Sequence record: NC_054912.1
DNA: 64,000 nt
Strand: one strand, 5' to 3'
Source of the DNA: Escherichia phage vB_EcoM_F1
A model generated the notes under the pieces. That model was not told where the DNA came from. It saw nothing but the letters and a program-made list of their open reading frames with translations, and did no database searches. Positions 48,650 to 55,335 of this stretch are shown here, in pieces (positions within the stretch are counted from its first letter, which is position 1; the number at the start of each line of letters is the position of its first letter). The position numbers were made by a program, and so were the translations under genes.

Positions 48650-49765
48650 ATGGAAAAATTTATGGCAAAGTTTGGACAAGGATATGTCCAAACGCCATTT
48701 TTATCGGAAAGTAATTCAGTAAGATATAAAATAAGCATAGCGGGTTCTTGCCCGCTTTCTACAGCAGGACCATATGTCAAATTTCAGGATAATCCTATTG
48801 GAAGTCAAACATTTAGCGCAGGACTTCATTTAAGAGTTTTTGACCCTTCTACAGGAGCATTAGTTGATAGTAAGTCATATGCTTTTTCGACTTCAAATGA
48901 TACTACATCAGCTGCTTTTGTTAGTTTCATGAACTCTTTGACGAATAATAGACTTGTTGCTATATTAACTAGCGGAAAGGTTAATTTTCCTCCAGAAGTA
49001 GTATCTTGGCTAAGAGCCACGGGAACGTCTGCTTTTCCATCTGATTCTATATTGTCAAGATTTGACGTATCATATGCTGCCTTTTATACTTCTTCTAAAA
49101 GAGCTATTGCATTAGAACATGTTAAACTAAGTAATAGAAAAAGCACAGATGATTATCAAACTATTTTAGATGTTGTATTTGATAGTTTAGAAGACGTTGG
49201 AGCTACTGGGTTTCCAAGAAGAACGTATGAAAGCGTTGAGCAATTTATGTCAGCGGTTGGTGGAACTAATAACGAAATTGCACGTTTACCAACTTCATCC
49301 GCGATAAGTAAATTATCTGATTATAATTTAATTCCTGGCGATGTTCTTTATCTTAAAGCGCAGCTATATGCTGATGCCGATTTACTTGCGCTTGGAACTA
49401 CAAATATATCTATCCGTTTTTATGATGAATCGAATGGATATATTTCTTCAACACATGCTGAGTTTACTGGACAAGCTGAGTCATGGGAATTAAAGGAAGA
49501 CTATGTAGTTGTTCCTGAAAATGCAGTAGGATTTACGATATATGCACAAAGAACTGCACAAGCAGGTCAAGGTGGCATGAGGAATTTAAGTTTTTCTGAA
49601 GTATCAAGAAATGGCGGAATTTCAAAACCTGCAGAATTTGGCGTCAATGGTATTCGAGTTAATTATGTCTGTGAATCTGCTTCACCTCCAGATATAATGG
49701 TACTTCCTACACAAGCATCGTCTAAAACTGGTAAAGTGTTTGGACAAGAATTTAGAGAAGTTTAA
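48650..49765 (+). CDS. 35: Long tail fibre hinge protein gp35
   Basis: 371-aa ORF. Confidence 0.9.
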   Translation: MEKFMAKFGQGYVQTPFLSESNSVRYKISIAGSCPLSTAGPYVKFQDNPIGSQTFSAGLHLRVFDPSTGALVDSKSYAFSTSNDTTSAAFVSFMNSLTNNRLVAILTSGKVNFPPEVVSWLRATGTSAFPSDSILSRFDVSYAAFYTSSKRAIALEHVKLSNRKSTDDYQTILDVVFDSLEDVGATGFPRRTYESVEQFMSAVGGTNNEIARLPTSSAISKLSDYNLIPGDVLYLKAQLYADADLLALGTTNISIRFYDESNGYISSTHAEFTGQAESWELKEDYVVVPENAVGFTIYAQRTAQAGQGGMRNLSFSEVSRNGGISKPAEFGVNGIRVNYVCESASPPDIMVLPTQASSKTGKVFGQEFREV

Positions 49766-49796: not shown

Positions 49797-49804
49797 TATA
49801 AATA
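49797..49804 (+). promoter_or_regulatory. Late promoter TATAAATA upstream of gene 36
   Basis: Exact TATAAATA about 24 nt upstream of gene 36 ATG. Confidence 0.55.
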
Positions 49805-50492: not shown

Positions 50493-53400
50493 ATGGCTAC
50501 TTTAAAACAAATACAATTTAAAAGAAGCAAAACCGCAGGAGCACGTCCTGCCGCTTCAGTATTAGCCGAAGGTGAATTGGCTATAAACTTAAAAGATCGC
50601 GTACTTTTTACTAAAGATGACCAAGGAAATATTATTGATCTGGGTTTTGCTAAAGGCGGTAGCATTGACGGGAATGTTATTCATACAGGAAACTATAATC
50701 AAACTGGTGATTATACTTTAAATGGCACCTTCACTCAGACAGGTAATTTTAATTTAACTGGTATTGCTCGAGTAACTCGCGATATTATTGCCGCCGGGCA
50801 AATTATGACCGAGGGCGGAGAACTTATTACAAAAAGTTCAGGTACAGCACATGTTCGTTTTTTCGATAACAATAGTCGCGAACGCGGAATCATTTATGCC
50901 CCGGCTAATGATGGTTTAACTACACAAGTACTTAATATCAGGGTTCAAGACTACGCCGCTGGTAGCGAAAGCACTTATGCATTTTCAGGCAGTGGACTAT
51001 TTACTTCACCTGAAGTATCAGCATGGAAATCTATTTCGTCTCCACAAATTCTGACCAACAAAGTCATTACTAATAATAAATCTACGGGTGATTATGACAT
51101 CTATTCGATGGCAGACAATGTTCCATTGTCTGAAAGCACTACTGCTATTAATCATCTTCGTGTCATGCGTAATGCCGTTGGTTCTGGTATTTTCCATGAA
51201 GTTAAAGATAATGATGGAATAACTTGGTATGCAGGTGATGGACTTGACACCTATCTTTGGTCATTTACTTGGAGCGGCGGAATTAAATCAAGTCACTCAA
51301 TTTCTATTGGTTTAACACCTGGTAATAAAGATTATTCAATATTAGGACCATCTAGTATTGCTTTAGGAGATAATGATACTGGATTTAAATGGCATCAAGA
51401 TGGATATTATTTCAGCGTTAATAATGGAACAAAAACGTTTTTATTTAGTCCTAGCGAAACAACTAGCCTAAGAAAATTTGTAGCTGGATATTCTACTAAC
51501 GGAACCGATTTAACTACTCCTCCAACTGAAAATTATGCTCTTGCTACTGTAGTGACATACCACGATAATAACGCGTTTGGAGATGGTCAGACTCTTTTAG
51601 GATATTATCAAGGCGGTAATTATCATCATTATTTTCGCGGTAAGGGTACTACAAACATTAATACTCATGGCGGTTTGTTAGTTACTCCAGGTAATATTGA
51701 CGTTATTGGTGGTTCTGTTAATATTGATGGTCGTAATAATTCTTCTACGCTGATGTTTAGAGGTAACACAACTGGTAGTAGTTCAGTTGATAACATGACA
51801 ATTTCTGTGTGGGGTAATACATTTATTAATCCTAGCGAAGGTAATCGCAAAAATGTCATGGAAATTTCTGACGCAACTAGTTGGATGAGCTATATTCAAC
51901 GAACAACTGCAGGTAAAGTCGAATCGGTTATAAATGGCACCCAGATTGTTAATGAAAACTTGACAGTAGTAAAAAATGCTACATTTGACGGTACAATCAG
52001 CGCAGCCGGTGAAATCGCGACAAATGCTGTAAATGGTCTTCGCATTTGGAATGCAGATTATGGAGCCATTTTTAGACGTTCAGAAGGCAGTCTTCATATT
52101 ATTCCAACTGCTTACGGTGAAGGTAAATATGGCGATATCGGTCCACTTCGCCCGTTTAGTATGGCTTTAGATACTGGTAAAGTTACTATTCCAGATTTAC
52201 AATCAAGTTACAATACGTTCGCAGCAAACGGCTATATTAAATTTACTGGTCACGGTGCGGGCGCTGGCGGTTATGCCATTCAATATGCTCAAGCGGCTCC
52301 TATTTTCCAGGAAATCGATGATGATGCTGTAAGCAAATATTATCCTATTGTTAAACAGAAGTTTTTAAACGGTAAATGCGTTTGGTCTTTAGGTACTGAA
52401 ATTAATTCGGGTACATTCGTTATTCATCATCTGAAAGAAGATGGTTCACAAGGACATACGTCTCGTTTTAATCAAGACGGTACCGTTAACTTCCCAGATA
52501 ACGTTTCTGTCGGCGGCGGTGAAGCTACTATTGCTCGCAATGGTAATATCTTCTCTGATATTTGGAAACCGTTTACTTCTGCAGGTGATACTACAAATAT
52601 TCGCGATGCTATTGCGACTCGTGTTTCGAAAGAAGGCGACACGATAACAGGCAAATTGACTTTATCGGCAGGTAATGATGCCCTTGTTTTAACTGCAGGC
52701 ACGGGCGCTTCATCGCACATCCGTAGTGATGTAGGTGGTACAAATAATTGGTATATAGGCAAAGGCGGCGGCGACAATGGTCTAGGTTTTTACAGTTACA
52801 TTACACAAGGCGGTGTATACATAACAAATAACGGCGAAATAGCGCTTTCTCCTCAAGGACAAGGAACGTTTAATTTTAATAGAGATCGCCTTCATATAAA
52901 TGGTACACAATGGACTGCGCACCAGGCTGGCGATTGGGGAAGTCAATGGAAACAAGAAGCTCCCGTATTTGTGGATTTTGGCTACGTCGGTAATGATAGT
53001 TATTATCCAATTATCAAAGGAAAATCTGGTATTACTAACGAAGGATATTTTTCCAGCGTTGATTTTGGTATGCGACGCATTCCTAATAACTGGGCACAAG
53101 GTATTATTCGTGTAGGTAATCAGGAAAACGGTTCCAACCCACAAGCTATCTTCGAATTCCACCATAATGGAAACATGTACGTTCCTGACATGGTTAAAGC
53201 TGGAGCAAGAGTATCAGCTGGTGGAGGTGACCCTGTATGGACAGGCGCATGTGTTGTTATTGGTGATAATGATACCGGATTAGTTCATGGTGGTGATGGG
53301 CGAATTAACATGGTTGCAAATGGAATGCATATTGCTTCGTGGTCGTCCGCTTACCATCTCCATGAAGGTCTTTGGGATACCACTGGTGCTCTGTGGACTG

Positions 53401-53822
53401 AACACGGAAGAGCTATTATTTCTTTTGGTCATTTAGTCCAACAAAGCGATGCCTATTCCACATTTGTCCGCGATGTTTATGTCCGTTCTGATATTCGTGT
53501 TAAAAAAGACCTCGTTAAATTTGAAAATGCTTCTGAGAAGCTTTCCAAAATTAATGGTTACACTTATATGCAGAAGCGAGGCCTAGATGAAGAAGGCAAT
53601 CAGAAATGGGAACCTAACGCCGGTTTAATTGCTCAAGAAGTTCAAGCTATTTTGCCAGAATTAGTTGAAGGTGACCCGGATGGTGAAGCTTTACTTCGTT
53701 TGAACTATAACGGTGTAATTGGTTTAAATACAGCTGCAATCAATGAGCATACTGCAGAAATTGCGGAACTTAAATCAGAAATTGAAGAACTTAAAGCATT
53801 AGTTAAATCATTGTTAAAATAA
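50493..53822 (+). CDS. 37: Long tail fibre distal subunit gp37, with C-terminal intramolecular-chaperone-like domain
   Basis: 1109-aa ORF; N-terminus conserved with gp36/gp34 joints; C-terminal about 110 aa resembles self-cleaving chaperone domains. Confidence 0.92.
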
Positions 53823-53828
53823 TAAGAG

Positions 53829-53844
53829 GGGCTTCGGCCCCTTG
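53829..53844 (+). terminator. Hairpin between genes 37 and 38
   Basis: aggggc-ttcg-gcccct, immediately followed by GGAGG and the gene 38 ATG. Confidence 0.55.
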
Positions 53845-53853
53845 GAGGTTTAT

Positions 53854-54648
53854 ATGGCAGTAACAGGACCGTGGGTAGGATCGTCTGCAGTAGTTAATAC
53901 AGGACAAAATTGGATGGGTGGCGCGGCCCAACGATTAAGAATGGGTGCTCCATTTTGGATGAGTAATATGATAGGTCGATCTGTTGAAGTAATTCACACA
54001 CTTGGAGCGGACCATAACTTCAATGGTCAATGGTTCCGAGATAGATGTTTTGAGGCAGGTAGTGCACCTATAGTGTTTAATATCACTGGAAATTTGGTAT
54101 CATATTCTAGAGATGTTCCTTTATTCTTCATGTATGGAGATACACCGAATGAATATGTTCAGTTGAATATTAGTGGCGGCGCCCACATGTGGGGTAGAGG
54201 TGGACAAGGTGGATGGACTCATTCCGGCGGAGATGGTAATGGCCAACAAGGTGGCCATTGTATTCAAAATGACATTGGCGGACGATTAAGAATTAATAAC
54301 GGCGGAGTAATTTGTGGCGGTGGAGGCGGTGGTGGTGGTATCGCTTATCGTCCTCACTCTGGCGCAAAATGGCAAGATATTGGTGGTGGCGGAGGAAGAC
54401 CATTTGGGCCAGGAGGCGGTGGTGGTTATTCCGGCGGCGCAGCTTCTTATGATGGCCCAGGAGGTGGTTATAATTATGGTAATGCTCACTCTGGCCAGGG
54501 TGGTGATGCTGGCGCAAATGGACAAAATGCCTGGCATGATGGCGGTAAAGTTCTAAAAGTCGGGGCTGGCGGAGCTGCTGGTTATGCCGTCATAGGGTCT
54601 ACACCGACATGGCAAAACGTTGGAGCAATATATGGTCCAAGAGTATAA
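53854..54648 (+). CDS. 38: gp38 tail-fibre adhesin of T2/T6 type (glycine-rich motifs)
   Basis: ATG at 53854 after GGAGG (the track ORF from 53842 starts at TTG); poly-Gly blocks [25 protein letters not shown] separated by variable segments. Confidence 0.85.
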
Positions 54649-54678: not shown

Positions 54679-55335
54679 ATGGCAGCACCTAGAATATCAT
54701 TTTCGCCCTCTGATATTCTGTTGGGTGTTCTAGATCGCTTGTTCAAAGATAACGCTACCGGGAAGGTTCTTGCTTCCCGAGTAGCTGTCGTAATTCTTTT
54801 ATTTATGATGGCGATTGTTTGGTATAGGGGAGATAGTTTCTTTGAGTACTATAAGCAATCAAAGTATGAAACATACAGTGAAATTATTGAAAAGGAAAGA
54901 ACTGCACGCTTTGAATCTGTCGCCCTGGAACAACTCCAGATAGTTCATATATCATCTGAGGCAGACTTTAGTGCGGTGTATTCTTTCCGCCCTAAAAACT
55001 TAAACTATTTTGTTGATATTATAGCATATGAAGGAAAATTACCTTCAACAATAAGCGAAAAATCACTTGGAGGATATCCTGTTGATAAAACTATGGATGA
55101 ATATACAGTTCATTTAAATGGACGTCATTATTATTCCAACTCAAAATTTGCTTTTTTACCAACTAAAAAGCCTACTCCCGAAATAAACTACATGTACAGT
55201 TGTCCATATTTTAATTTGGATAATATCTATGCTGGAACGATAACCATGTACTGGTATAGAAATGATCATATAAGTAATGACCGCCTTGAATCAATATGTT
55301 CTCAGGCGGCCAGAATATTAGGAAGGGCTAAATAA
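54679..55335 (+). CDS. t: Holin T
   Basis: 218-aa ORF with single N-terminal TM segment (VAVVILLFMMAIVWY) and large C-terminal domain. Confidence 0.92.
   Translation: MAAPRISFSPSDILLGVLDRLFKDNATGKVLASRVAVVILLFMMAIVWYRGDSFFEYYKQSKYETYSEIIEKERTARFESVALEQLQIVHISSEADFSAVYSFRPKNLNYFVDIIAYEGKLPSTISEKSLGGYPVDKTMDEYTVHLNGRHYYSNSKFAFLPTKKPTPEINYMYSCPYFNLDNIYAGTITMYWYRNDHISNDRLESICSQAARILGRAK

Follow-up and report, generated by a model that had tools for sequence, protein, structure and literature searches.

Gene 38 of the analysed window, a 64,000-nt stretch of DNA from the Tequatrovirus vB_EcoM_FN (FN), encodes a 264-aa receptor-recognising adhesin of the T2/S16 type, identified by its ORF (53854..54648 on the + strand, stop codon included), the Pfam families GP38 and Gp38_N and the PDB matches 9V85 and 6F45_D. 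Very probably, this protein caps the gp37 trimer of the long tail fibre at its distal end as a monomer, carries the OmpA-specific loop allele of phage RB32 and serves an infection that depends on the LPS core. The finding on gp38 is correct but ordinary, the adhesin type being already known; what goes beyond the first-pass annotation is a named receptor, a prior report of OmpA/LPS-core dependence for FN and the mosaic nature of the gene.

Gene 38 and its glycine-rich product

The gene begins with ATG at 53854 and ends with TAA, and its product was 100% identical to QYW00614.1 (CDS of MZ170041.1). This ATG was accepted as the real start because a Shine-Dalgarno sequence, GGAGG, is present at 53844–53848 and all homologues open with MAV. 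The TTG at 53842, listed as the start in the mechanical ORF list, was rejected, since it is located within a hairpin directly 5' of the Shine-Dalgarno sequence. The GenBank record labels the protein only as 'tail fibers protein', and some of its close homologues are mislabelled as 'assembly catalyst', a name derived from T4.

Glycine made up 70 of the 264 residues of gp38 (26.5%) and 53 of the 130 residues at positions 114–243 (40.8%). The window contains 44 ORFs of 150 aa or more, with an average Gly content of 6.5%; among them, gp38 ranked highest and gp37 second (12.4%). The successive polyglycine blocks described in the first-pass annotation were all found in the ORF: GGGGGGGG at residues 155–162, GGGGG at 177–181, GPGGGGG at 185–191, GPGGG at 201–205 and GQGGDAG at 214–220. 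The first conserved motif of gp38, GRGGQGG (114–120), and the variable segment after it (121–132) were absent from that annotation. Chance composition was rejected as the origin of the blocks, because gp38 is 4–6 times as rich in Gly as the average for the window and its motif columns are conserved in 75 homologues.

Assignment to the adhesin family

gp38 is a member of the T2/S16-type adhesin family by sequence and by its predicted fold. With a Pfam cut-off of 25 bits for both families, it matched PF05268 (GP38 adhesin; E 2.5e-68, 230.6 bits) at residues 45–264 over profile positions 1–218 of 218 and PF21721 (Gp38_N; E 1.6e-21, 76.5 bits) at residues 1–40. It was placed in the PHROG family phrog_2056 ('tail fiber protein; host specificity', E 6.6e-111), and its only PDB sequence matches were PP01 gp38 (9V85, E 3.5e-73) and S16 gp38 (6F45_D, E 2.5e-52). 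Among the checks proposed in the first-pass annotation, alignment with the gp38 of T2, T6 and S16 resulted in a common family with overall identities of 45, 68 and 51%, respectively, and the predicted structure matched only the PP01 and S16 gp38 folds. Nothing in the sequence is contrary to the adhesin assignment.

The same annotation had set this type against the T4 type, in which gp38 is a non-structural, Tfa-like chaperone that helps gp37 to fold and is not in the virion, gp37 itself binding the receptor. T4 gp38 resembles the protein studied here only in its gene name and its map position between genes 37 and t, where the T4 gene encodes the chaperone, and several close homologues in GenBank retain an older name, 'distal long tail fiber assembly catalyst'. 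However, T4 gp38, which is not a virion component (T4 record annotation note; PMC6851490), has 183 aa, is not glycine-rich and belongs to a separate PHROG family, phrog_105 ('tail fiber assembly', E 6.4e-45), disjoint from phrog_2056 and without a match to the window gp38 in the PHROG search; BLASTP detected no T4 gp38 similarity either (E 0.89). The non-membership was argued from BLASTP and PHROGs because a Pfam scan of T4 gp38 gave no family at E <= 0.01; an NCBIfam scan gave no family for either protein. Also against a chaperone are the full-length match to the adhesin Pfam families and to solved adhesin structures, and the presence in gp37 of its own S74 intramolecular chaperone and an S16-type tip. 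At the sequence and fold level the chaperone reading is already refuted, and the probability left to it is negligible. The claim of a T2/T6-type adhesin was thus borne out by the Pfam, PHROG and PDB matches.

Domain organization and predicted structure

The AF2 model of gp38, built from an input alignment of window and database proteins only, had a pLDDT of 90.5 and a pTM of 0.82, and showed helices at residues 8–16, 21–27 and 36–39 followed by strands, in a predicted three-domain fold. In a Foldseek search against the PDB only 9V85 and 6F45_D were found below E 0.001 (target-normalised TM 0.87), the next match having an E of 2.8.

The N-terminal attachment domain (residues 1–44; 53854..53985, +) was delimited by PF21721 and by the tryptophans W7, W20 and W35, which were at least 90% conserved among the 75 homologues. 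In S16, the three attachment-domain tryptophans dock in pockets of the gp37 trimer (PMC6851490), and the three-helix domain of the window gp38 would plug into the gp37 tip. The central domain (residues 45–113; 53986..54192, +), recognized from AF2 strands and superposition on 6F45_D and 9V85, would form a beta-helix completed by the C-terminal strands at residues 239–264 of the model (54568–54645, +); the strands at 46–113 and 246–260 had pLDDT values above 90.

The glycine-rich domain at residues 114–238 (54193..54567, +), defined by its Gly content, invariant Gly columns and fold, is predicted to fold as a polyglycine-II (PGII) sandwich, matching the fold described for S16 gp38 (PMC6851490) and PP01 gp38 (PMC12892980), and is the putative receptor-binding module. 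The conserved glycine motifs would serve as the scaffold of the PGII helix sandwich, while the receptor-binding face would consist of five distal loops (approximately residues 121–128, 165–176, 189–192, 207–212 and 227–236), the boundaries and distal or proximal placement of which were transferred by alignment from the loops as published for PP01 and S16 and not taken from coordinates. By homology to PP01 and S16, contact with the receptor, presumably OmpA, should occur only via these five loops.

Variable segments between the glycine motifs

Variability was measured as the Shannon entropy per column in the 75 gp38 homologues. It reached 1.75–2.5 bits in five variable segments, compared to 0.25–1.0 bits in the glycine motifs and a mean of 0.88 bits in the beta-helix region. 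Invariant or at least 90% conserved glycine columns were found at positions 114–119, 133–134, 156–161, 177–181, 185, 188, 194, 203, 214–217, 220 and 223. The proposal that the segments between the glycine blocks are variable was therefore correct for the five segments, but not for R182-P183-F184, located between the second and third glycine blocks, which was invariant or nearly so in the same homologues.

All five segments are encoded on the + strand and can be related to the loops of PP01 gp38. Segment A (residues 121–132; 54214..54249; mean entropy 1.75 bits) was placed on PP01 loop-A (W119-I124) by PDB alignment and the loop definitions of PMC12892980. Segment B (163–176; 54340..54381; 2.38 bits), corresponding to the HVS and PP01 loop-B, was identical to RB32 at 14 of 14 positions, to T6 at two, and to T2 and S16 at none. 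Segment C (189–201; 54418..54456), equivalent to PP01 loop-C plus the next turn, with an entropy of up to 3.0 bits, had 13/13 identities to RB32 and 2–5/13 to T2, T6 and S16. The corresponding values were 8/8 and 0–3/8 for segment D (YNYGNAHS, PP01 loop-D; 206–213; 54469..54492; mean 2.51 bits), and 15/15 and 0–3/15 for segment E (PP01 loop-E; 224–238; 54523..54567; mean 2.23 bits). In PP01 it is loop-E that governs specificity (PMC12892980).

The loop identity among the homologues had a bimodal distribution, with 18 of them at 76% or above and 56 at 26% or below, which shows that the gp38 loops represent discrete alleles kept within a receptor class rather than being continuously hypervariable. 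A comparison of codons 114–243 with those of RB32 yielded 22 synonymous and no non-synonymous changes: within the RB32/FN allele, purifying selection acts on the 'hypervariable' loops.

Gene 37 and the mosaic structure of gene 38

Gene 37, an ORF at 50493..53822 (+), encodes the distal long-tail-fibre subunit (1109 aa), the trimer of which is capped by gp38; it ends at 53822, gene 38 begins at 53854, and the gene order 34-35-36-37-38-t is the same as in T2, T6, RB32 and S16. The C-terminal 192 aa of gp37 matched S16 gp37 of the gp37–gp38 complex (6F45_A, E 1.8e-43), the resemblance to S16 including both the tip and the intramolecular chaperone. The latter, of the Peptidase_S74 type, occupies residues 999–1109 (53487..53819, +), as evidenced by PF13884 (E 1.1e-12, residues 999–1058) and the presence of Ser999. 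Cleavage is a property of S74-family chaperones and, by analogy with this family, gp37 would presumably cut itself at Ser999 and release the chaperone before gp38 docks.

The last 309 aa of gp37 were 89–90% identical to those of FL08 and AV119 and only 32% to those of RB32, and the N-terminal domain of gp38 was 98% identical to that of FL08 and 61% to that of RB32. RB32 gp38 has 27 of 44 residues of its attachment domain in common with the window gp38 and contains a two-residue 'VP' insertion, while the window protein has an S16-like N-domain without it; at the nucleotide level, the identity to RB32 gene 38 over codons 1–46 was 63%. Gene 38 is thus mosaic, its N-terminal docking domain, along with the gp37 tip, being of the FL08/AV119/S16 type and not of the RB32 type. 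Given the RB32-unlike N-domain and the 32% identity of the gp37 C-terminus, the receptor module common to both phages therefore sits on a different fibre tip. Scientifically, gp38 was already known to be shuffled in modules, and this gene is just one more case of it.

Comparison with known gp38 adhesins and the probable receptor

The closest counterpart of the receptor-binding part of gp38 was found in RB32 and RB33 (Trojet et al., 2011; PMC3157838), whose gene 38 occupies the same position: residues 111–249 were 100% identical to RB32, including every glycine motif and all five loops (62/62 loop residues). The FL08 and AV119 proteins, belonging to 'type 1' OmpA phages (Lutz et al., 2025; PMC12032242), had the same type of N-domain and were 95% (15 differences) and 92% (21 differences) identical overall, with approximately 90% identity in the loops. 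Their 7–8 differences within residues 114–243 (e.g., P167V, K172N, D200V, G201A, N207Q and H228S) could adjust the choice of OmpA loop variants that the adhesin accepts. PP01 gp38 (9V85) has the beta-helix and PGII sandwich in common with the window gp38 (64% identity, with a nearly identical beta-helix part), but its loops A–E differ in sequence and length and its receptor is OmpC of E. coli O157 (PMC12892980). The S16 protein, known from the structure of its complex with gp37 (PDB 6F45; Dunne et al., 2018), matches over its full length, is similar in fold (TM 0.82–0.87, query-/target-normalised) and has the three docking tryptophans; however, its loop identity was 10%, and S16, a Gelderlandvirus with a Salmonella host, reportedly targets OmpC. 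T2 and T6 gp38 are alike in family, order of glycine motifs and gene position, but differ in receptor (FadL/OmpF and Tsx, respectively) and in loops, with identities of 15 and 11%.

Because the loop set of gp38 is that of the RB32, or 'type 1 OmpA', allele, OmpA would be the primary receptor of the phage, with an intact LPS core probably needed as well for infection. The dependence of these relatives is reported in the literature: RB32 requires OmpA and is LPS-sensitive, and its 400-bp HVS block carried the specificity along when moved to RB5 (PMC3157838), while FL08 and AV119 were found to be OmpA-dependent by experiment (PMC12032242). For FN itself, spot tests briefly described in an unreviewed preprint (bioRxiv 10.1101/2022.07.04.498734) showed a loss of infectivity on K-12 ompA mutants and also on rfaY, rfaG, rfaH and heptosyltransferase II mutants. 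The claim of the first-pass annotation that gp38 sets the receptor specificity is thus upheld by inference from the published RB32 HVS swaps and the FN receptor data.

According to the same preprint, treatment with proteinase K decreased the adsorption of FN by only 12%, while periodate lowered it from 87.5 to 45.8%. Since the periodate effect was large and that of proteinase K small, the share of LPS in adsorption on the natural host may exceed what a simple OmpA receptor model implies. The OmpA beta-barrel, on the other hand, resists proteinase K in intact cells, which could account for the weak protease effect. In addition, LPS-core mutations disturb the outer-membrane protein content (PMC3157838), so that the LPS dependence is possibly indirect. 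That the adhesin uses another protein (Tsx, OmpC, OmpF or FadL) or LPS alone as the primary receptor would agree with the stronger action of periodate and with the fact that one HVS substitution can switch the receptor, as Q206L does from OmpF to OmpW in RB51/RB68 (bioRxiv 10.64898/2026.04.02.716166). Yet there were zero substitutions relative to RB32 in residues 111–249, the RB32 block confers OmpA/LPS dependence, the loops are remote from those of the Tsx-type T6, FadL/OmpF-type T2 and S16, and OmpA dependence was directly reported for FN, all of which makes a different primary receptor very improbable. The latter preprint (bioRxiv 10.64898/2026.04.02.716166) covers 255 coliphages, but a search of its main text for receptor calls on RB32 and RB33 found no mention of either. 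A more speculative version, to which we give a small chance, is that the RB32/FN loop allele is a dual-specific face in direct contact with the extracellular loops of OmpA and also with the inner or outer core of LPS. This would explain why OmpA and LPS-core genes are required by RB32 as well as by FN, why periodate acts more than protease on FN adsorption, and why there are 0 non-synonymous against 22 synonymous changes while the block moves between fibre scaffolds.

The remaining alternative, that gp38 is a mere structural cap and host range is set mainly by the gp37 shaft, the gp12 short fibres or intracellular defences, concerns the overall host range and not the adhesin function, and is partly compatible with OmpA recognition by gp38. 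Although OmpA is ubiquitous, the lytic spectrum of FN is very narrow, with no more than 2.9% of 104 E. coli isolates from pigs being lysed (bioRxiv 10.1101/2022.07.04.498734), and type 1 OmpA adhesins accepted all OmpA variants tested (PMC12032242); such a narrow spectrum together with broad OmpA acceptance suggests a limit on wild strains other than gp38–OmpA recognition. In related phages, however, gp38 swaps suffice to switch the primary receptor (PMC3157838; bioRxiv 10.64898/2026.04.02.716166), and as a full explanation the structural cap appears unlikely, albeit less so than the other alternatives considered.

With OmpA as the probable receptor, gp38 can be named as a receptor-recognising adhesin of the OmpA (RB32/type 1) class. 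In phage therapy or biocontrol with vB_EcoM_FN, resistance is to be expected via ompA or LPS-core mutations, so that FN should be combined in cocktails with phages using other receptors.

Candidate regulatory signals around genes 36–38

An intercistronic stem-loop with a UUCG tetraloop was recognized from the sequence and RNA folding at 53826–53843 (+), just 5' of the gene 38 Shine-Dalgarno sequence. It has a 7-bp stem, with an MFE of -14.1 kcal/mol and a z-score of -1.66, and is not well supported as a significant RNA element. Further upstream, an exact match to the T4-type late promoter motif TATAAATA is located at 49797..49804 (+), 24 nt before gene 36 begins. The number of such motifs in the window was not above chance (13 vs. 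8.4 expected); judging from its position alone, this copy is the probable start of a 36-37-38 late transcript.

Gene 38 and its surroundings

Gene 38 consisted of 264 codons running from ATG to TAA at 53854-54648 on the plus strand. This ATG was accepted as the start because a GGAGG Shine-Dalgarno sequence is present at 53844-53848 and all homologues begin with MAV, for which reason the TTG at 53842 proposed in a mechanical ORF list was rejected. The nucleotide sequence was 100% identical to that of QYW00614.1, a CDS in the record MZ170041.1 (Escherichia phage vB_EcoM_FN; Tequatrovirus effone from poultry sewage, Portugal), where the label is "tail fibers protein" and nothing more. Judging from the coordinates, the window corresponds to the final 64 kb of this record. 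Over the 12,795 nt compared, the window differed from MZ170041.1 by a single mismatch at 52774, in codon 761 of gene 37: A in the window (GAC, Asp761) versus G (GGC, Gly). The window base looks like the conserved state, since the residue of T6 gp37 aligned with it is also Asp.

The gene order corresponded to the canonical T-even block: genes 34, 35, 36, 37 (50493-53822, 1109 aa), 38 and holin t (54679-55335; PF11031, E 5e-118), beyond which asiA-like genes lie on the opposite strand. Gene 37 ended with a double TAA (53820-53825), and a hairpin with a 7-bp stem and a UUCG tetraloop was found at 53826-53843, between this stop and the gene 38 Shine-Dalgarno sequence, being statistically weak (z = -1.66). 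C(UUCG)G hairpins are known in T4 intercistronic regions. The glycine-rich half of gene 38 (54193-54648) had 52% GC, owing to its GGN codons, against 36% for the window, and this high GC content resulted in several spurious ORFs that overlap the gene, in other reading frames as well as on the minus strand (54286-54537, 54293-54517, 54314-54556).

Family and fold of gp38

The first-pass annotation had described the 264-aa product as a glycine-rich adhesin of the T2/T6 type and not the T4-type assembly chaperone, which proved correct, and its interpretation is supported. In Pfam, the entire profile of PF05268 ("Phage tail fibre adhesin Gp38") was covered by residues 45-264 (E 2.5e-68), preceded by PF21721 ("Gp38 N-terminal domain"; residues 1-40, E 1.6e-21), while in PHROGs the protein fell into phrog_2056 ("tail fiber protein; host specificity", E 6.6e-111). 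Only two solved structures were matched by sequence: 9V85, the receptor-binding domain of PP01 gp38 (E 3.5e-73), and 6F45_D, the S16 gp38 in the gp37-gp38 tip complex (full length, E 2.5e-52). The AlphaFold2 model, built from a 72-sequence alignment (mean pLDDT 90.5, pTM 0.82), had three short helices at the N-terminus, then beta-strands and an extended glycine region that was neither helix nor strand. The suggested check by structure prediction gave the same answer: in a Foldseek search of the PDB the model superposed only on 9V85 and 6F45_D (E ~1e-25, target-normalised TM 0.87), the next match having an E of 2.8. Homology to the T4-type chaperone, named beforehand as evidence against the adhesin, was clearly absent: BLASTP detected no similarity to T4 gp38 (NC_000866, 183 aa; E 0.89), which belongs to phrog_105 ("tail fiber assembly").

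The tryptophans W7, W20 and W35 were present and conserved; their three equivalents in S16 gp38 dock into pockets of the gp37 trimer (PMC6851490). As in S16, the N-terminal domain lacked the "VP" insertion of RB32. Four homologues of 175-179 aa (P0106-P0109), mostly from Klebsiella phages or host contigs, had only the Gp38_N docking domain in common with the window protein (56-70% identical to residues 1-44 or 1-62). Their C-termini were unrelated and had no glycine-rich part, and these proteins appear to carry the same docking plug on a different binding head. Residues 1-59 of window gp38 also matched phrog_1121. A 303-aa homologue, P0089, joined part of a Peptidase_S74 domain to a complete gp38 and is probably a gene call read through the g37/g38 junction, while the "Bacillus cereus" label of another homologue, P0050, in NCBI most likely reflects contamination with a coliphage protein.

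Glycine motifs and variable segments

All glycine blocks quoted in the first-pass annotation were found: GGGGGGGG (residues 155-162), GGGGG (177-181), GPGGGGG (185-191), GPGGG (201-205) and GQGGDAG (214-220). That annotation had overlooked the initial motif, GRGGQGG (114-120), together with the variable segment following it. Glycine made up 26.5% of gp38 and 40.8% of residues 114-243, compared to a mean of 6.5% among the 44 window ORFs of at least 150 aa. A compositional accident as the origin of the blocks was rejected, since their glycine columns were invariant or at least 90% conserved in 75 homologues.

The window protein and 74 homologues were aligned, and variability was expressed as Shannon entropy per column. 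Mean values were 1.02 bits in the N-terminal domain (residues 1-40), 0.88 in the beta-helix (41-113) and 0.25-1.0 in the several stretches of glycine motifs, increasing to 1.75 in variable segment A (121-132; entropy over 120-132), 2.38 in B (163-176), 1.84 in C (189-201; entropy over 190-201), 2.51 in D (206-213) and 2.23 in E (224-238). The proposed variability of the inter-glycine stretches thus held for segments A-E but not for R182-P183-F184, which lies between two glycine blocks and is conserved. This pattern matches the published family descriptions: glycine-rich motifs GRM1-5 and variable segments HVS1-4 (Trojet et al., PMC3157838), the three-layer sandwich of ten PGII helices with five distal loops in S16 gp38 (PMC6851490) and loops A-E of the PP01 structure (PMC12892980). 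Judging from the alignment with the PP01 sequence, the distal loops of window gp38 would correspond approximately to W121-G128, Y165-I176, G189-Y192, N207-H212 and W227-V236.

Receptor

The C-terminal 155 aa were 98.1% identical to RB32 gp38, and residues 111-249, spanning all the glycine motifs as well as the five loops, were identical residue by residue. In experiments with Keio deletions RB32 required OmpA and was influenced by LPS composition, and a 400-bp RB32/RB33 HVS block transferred the OmpA/LPS specificity to the Tsx-dependent RB5 (Trojet et al., PMC3157838). Window gp38 differed at 15 positions from FL08 and at 21 from AV119, whose gp38 are OmpA-dependent "type 1" adhesins accepting all eight OmpA variants tested (Lutz et al. 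2025, PMC12032242). For vB_EcoM_FN, a 2022 preprint (bioRxiv 10.1101/2022.07.04.498734) noted the lack of homology of its gp38 to T4 gp38 and, from brief data, reported dependence on OmpA and on the LPS-core genes rfaY, rfaG, rfaH and heptosyltransferase II; according to the preprint, periodate lowered adsorption from 87.5 to 45.8%, and proteinase K reduced it by only 12%. The sequence-based prediction of OmpA, a step beyond the first-pass annotation, agrees with this report, although the brevity of its data and the much stronger effect of periodate call for some caution. Publications already cover the family and its fold, the reasoning behind the variable segments, and the receptor of both this allele and vB_EcoM_FN itself; the useful result is a sharper annotation, an OmpA-class receptor-recognising adhesin. 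The only mildly novel reading left, direct binding of both OmpA and LPS by the loop set, is unlikely.

Mosaicism and selection

Comparison with RB32 indicates that gene 38 is mosaic: codons 1-46 had 63% nucleotide identity with 18 non-synonymous codons, while codons 47-243 had 94-95%. The last 309 aa of gp37 were 32% identical to RB32 and 89-90% to FL08 and AV119, and the N-terminal domain of gp38 matched FL08 at 43/44 positions. With both the N-domain and the gp37 tip FL08-like and the loops RB32-like, the docking domain co-varies with the fiber tip, and the receptor-binding module moves independently of it.

The 74 homologues were bimodal in their loop identity to the window protein (18 at 76% or above, 56 at 26% or below, none between), against a scaffold identity of 62-100%. 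Loop identity was uncoupled from N-domain identity: homologues P0042, P0043 and P0046 had N-domains 98-100% identical and loops only 10-16%. Homologue P0051 had 87% of the window loop residues but only 36% identity in the beta-helix and 48% in the N-domain, as if a distant gp38 scaffold had received an OmpA-type loop set.

Codons 114-243 had 22 synonymous-only and no non-synonymous differences from RB32, and 43 and 8, respectively, from FL08; within the allele the loops are under purifying selection. The earlier designation of the segments as host-range hotspots consequently holds between alleles; the segments are conserved cassettes of discrete types and do not mutate continuously. These results agree with the published modular-exchange model (PMC3157838), and gene 38 illustrates module shuffling in a clear-cut way.

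Fiber assembly and other fiber proteins

The C-terminus of gp37 matched the S16 gp37 chain of 6F45 (E 1.8e-43), with a Peptidase_S74 intramolecular chaperone beginning at Ser999. Having its own folding device, the fiber does not need a T4-type gp38. By its position, the TATAAATA located before gene 36 (49797) is the probable start of late transcription, which yields gp36, gp37 and gp38. The S74 chaperone would help gp37 to trimerise and, by analogy with its family, would be cleaved off at Ser999 before gp38 docking. Homology to 6F45 suggests that one gp38 monomer then docks via its tryptophan-bearing N-domain, and the five loops of the PGII sandwich may bind extracellular loops of OmpA, given their identity to RB32 and their similarity to FL08/AV119. 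Infection also requires an intact LPS core, perhaps directly, via the short tail fibers, or perhaps indirectly via outer-membrane protein assembly.

Residues 449-556 of gp37 (51837-52160) matched PF21446, the C-terminal trimerisation domain of the proximal subunit gp34 (E 1e-8), which suggests a module common to the proximal and distal half-fibers. In the hinge connector gp35 (gene 35, 48650-49765), residues 58-125 matched PF15711, "Interleukin-like EMT inducer (ILEI)", an unexpected label for a phage fiber protein, with E 4.4e-8 and a score of 33.9 bits against the Pfam gathering cut-off of 27.
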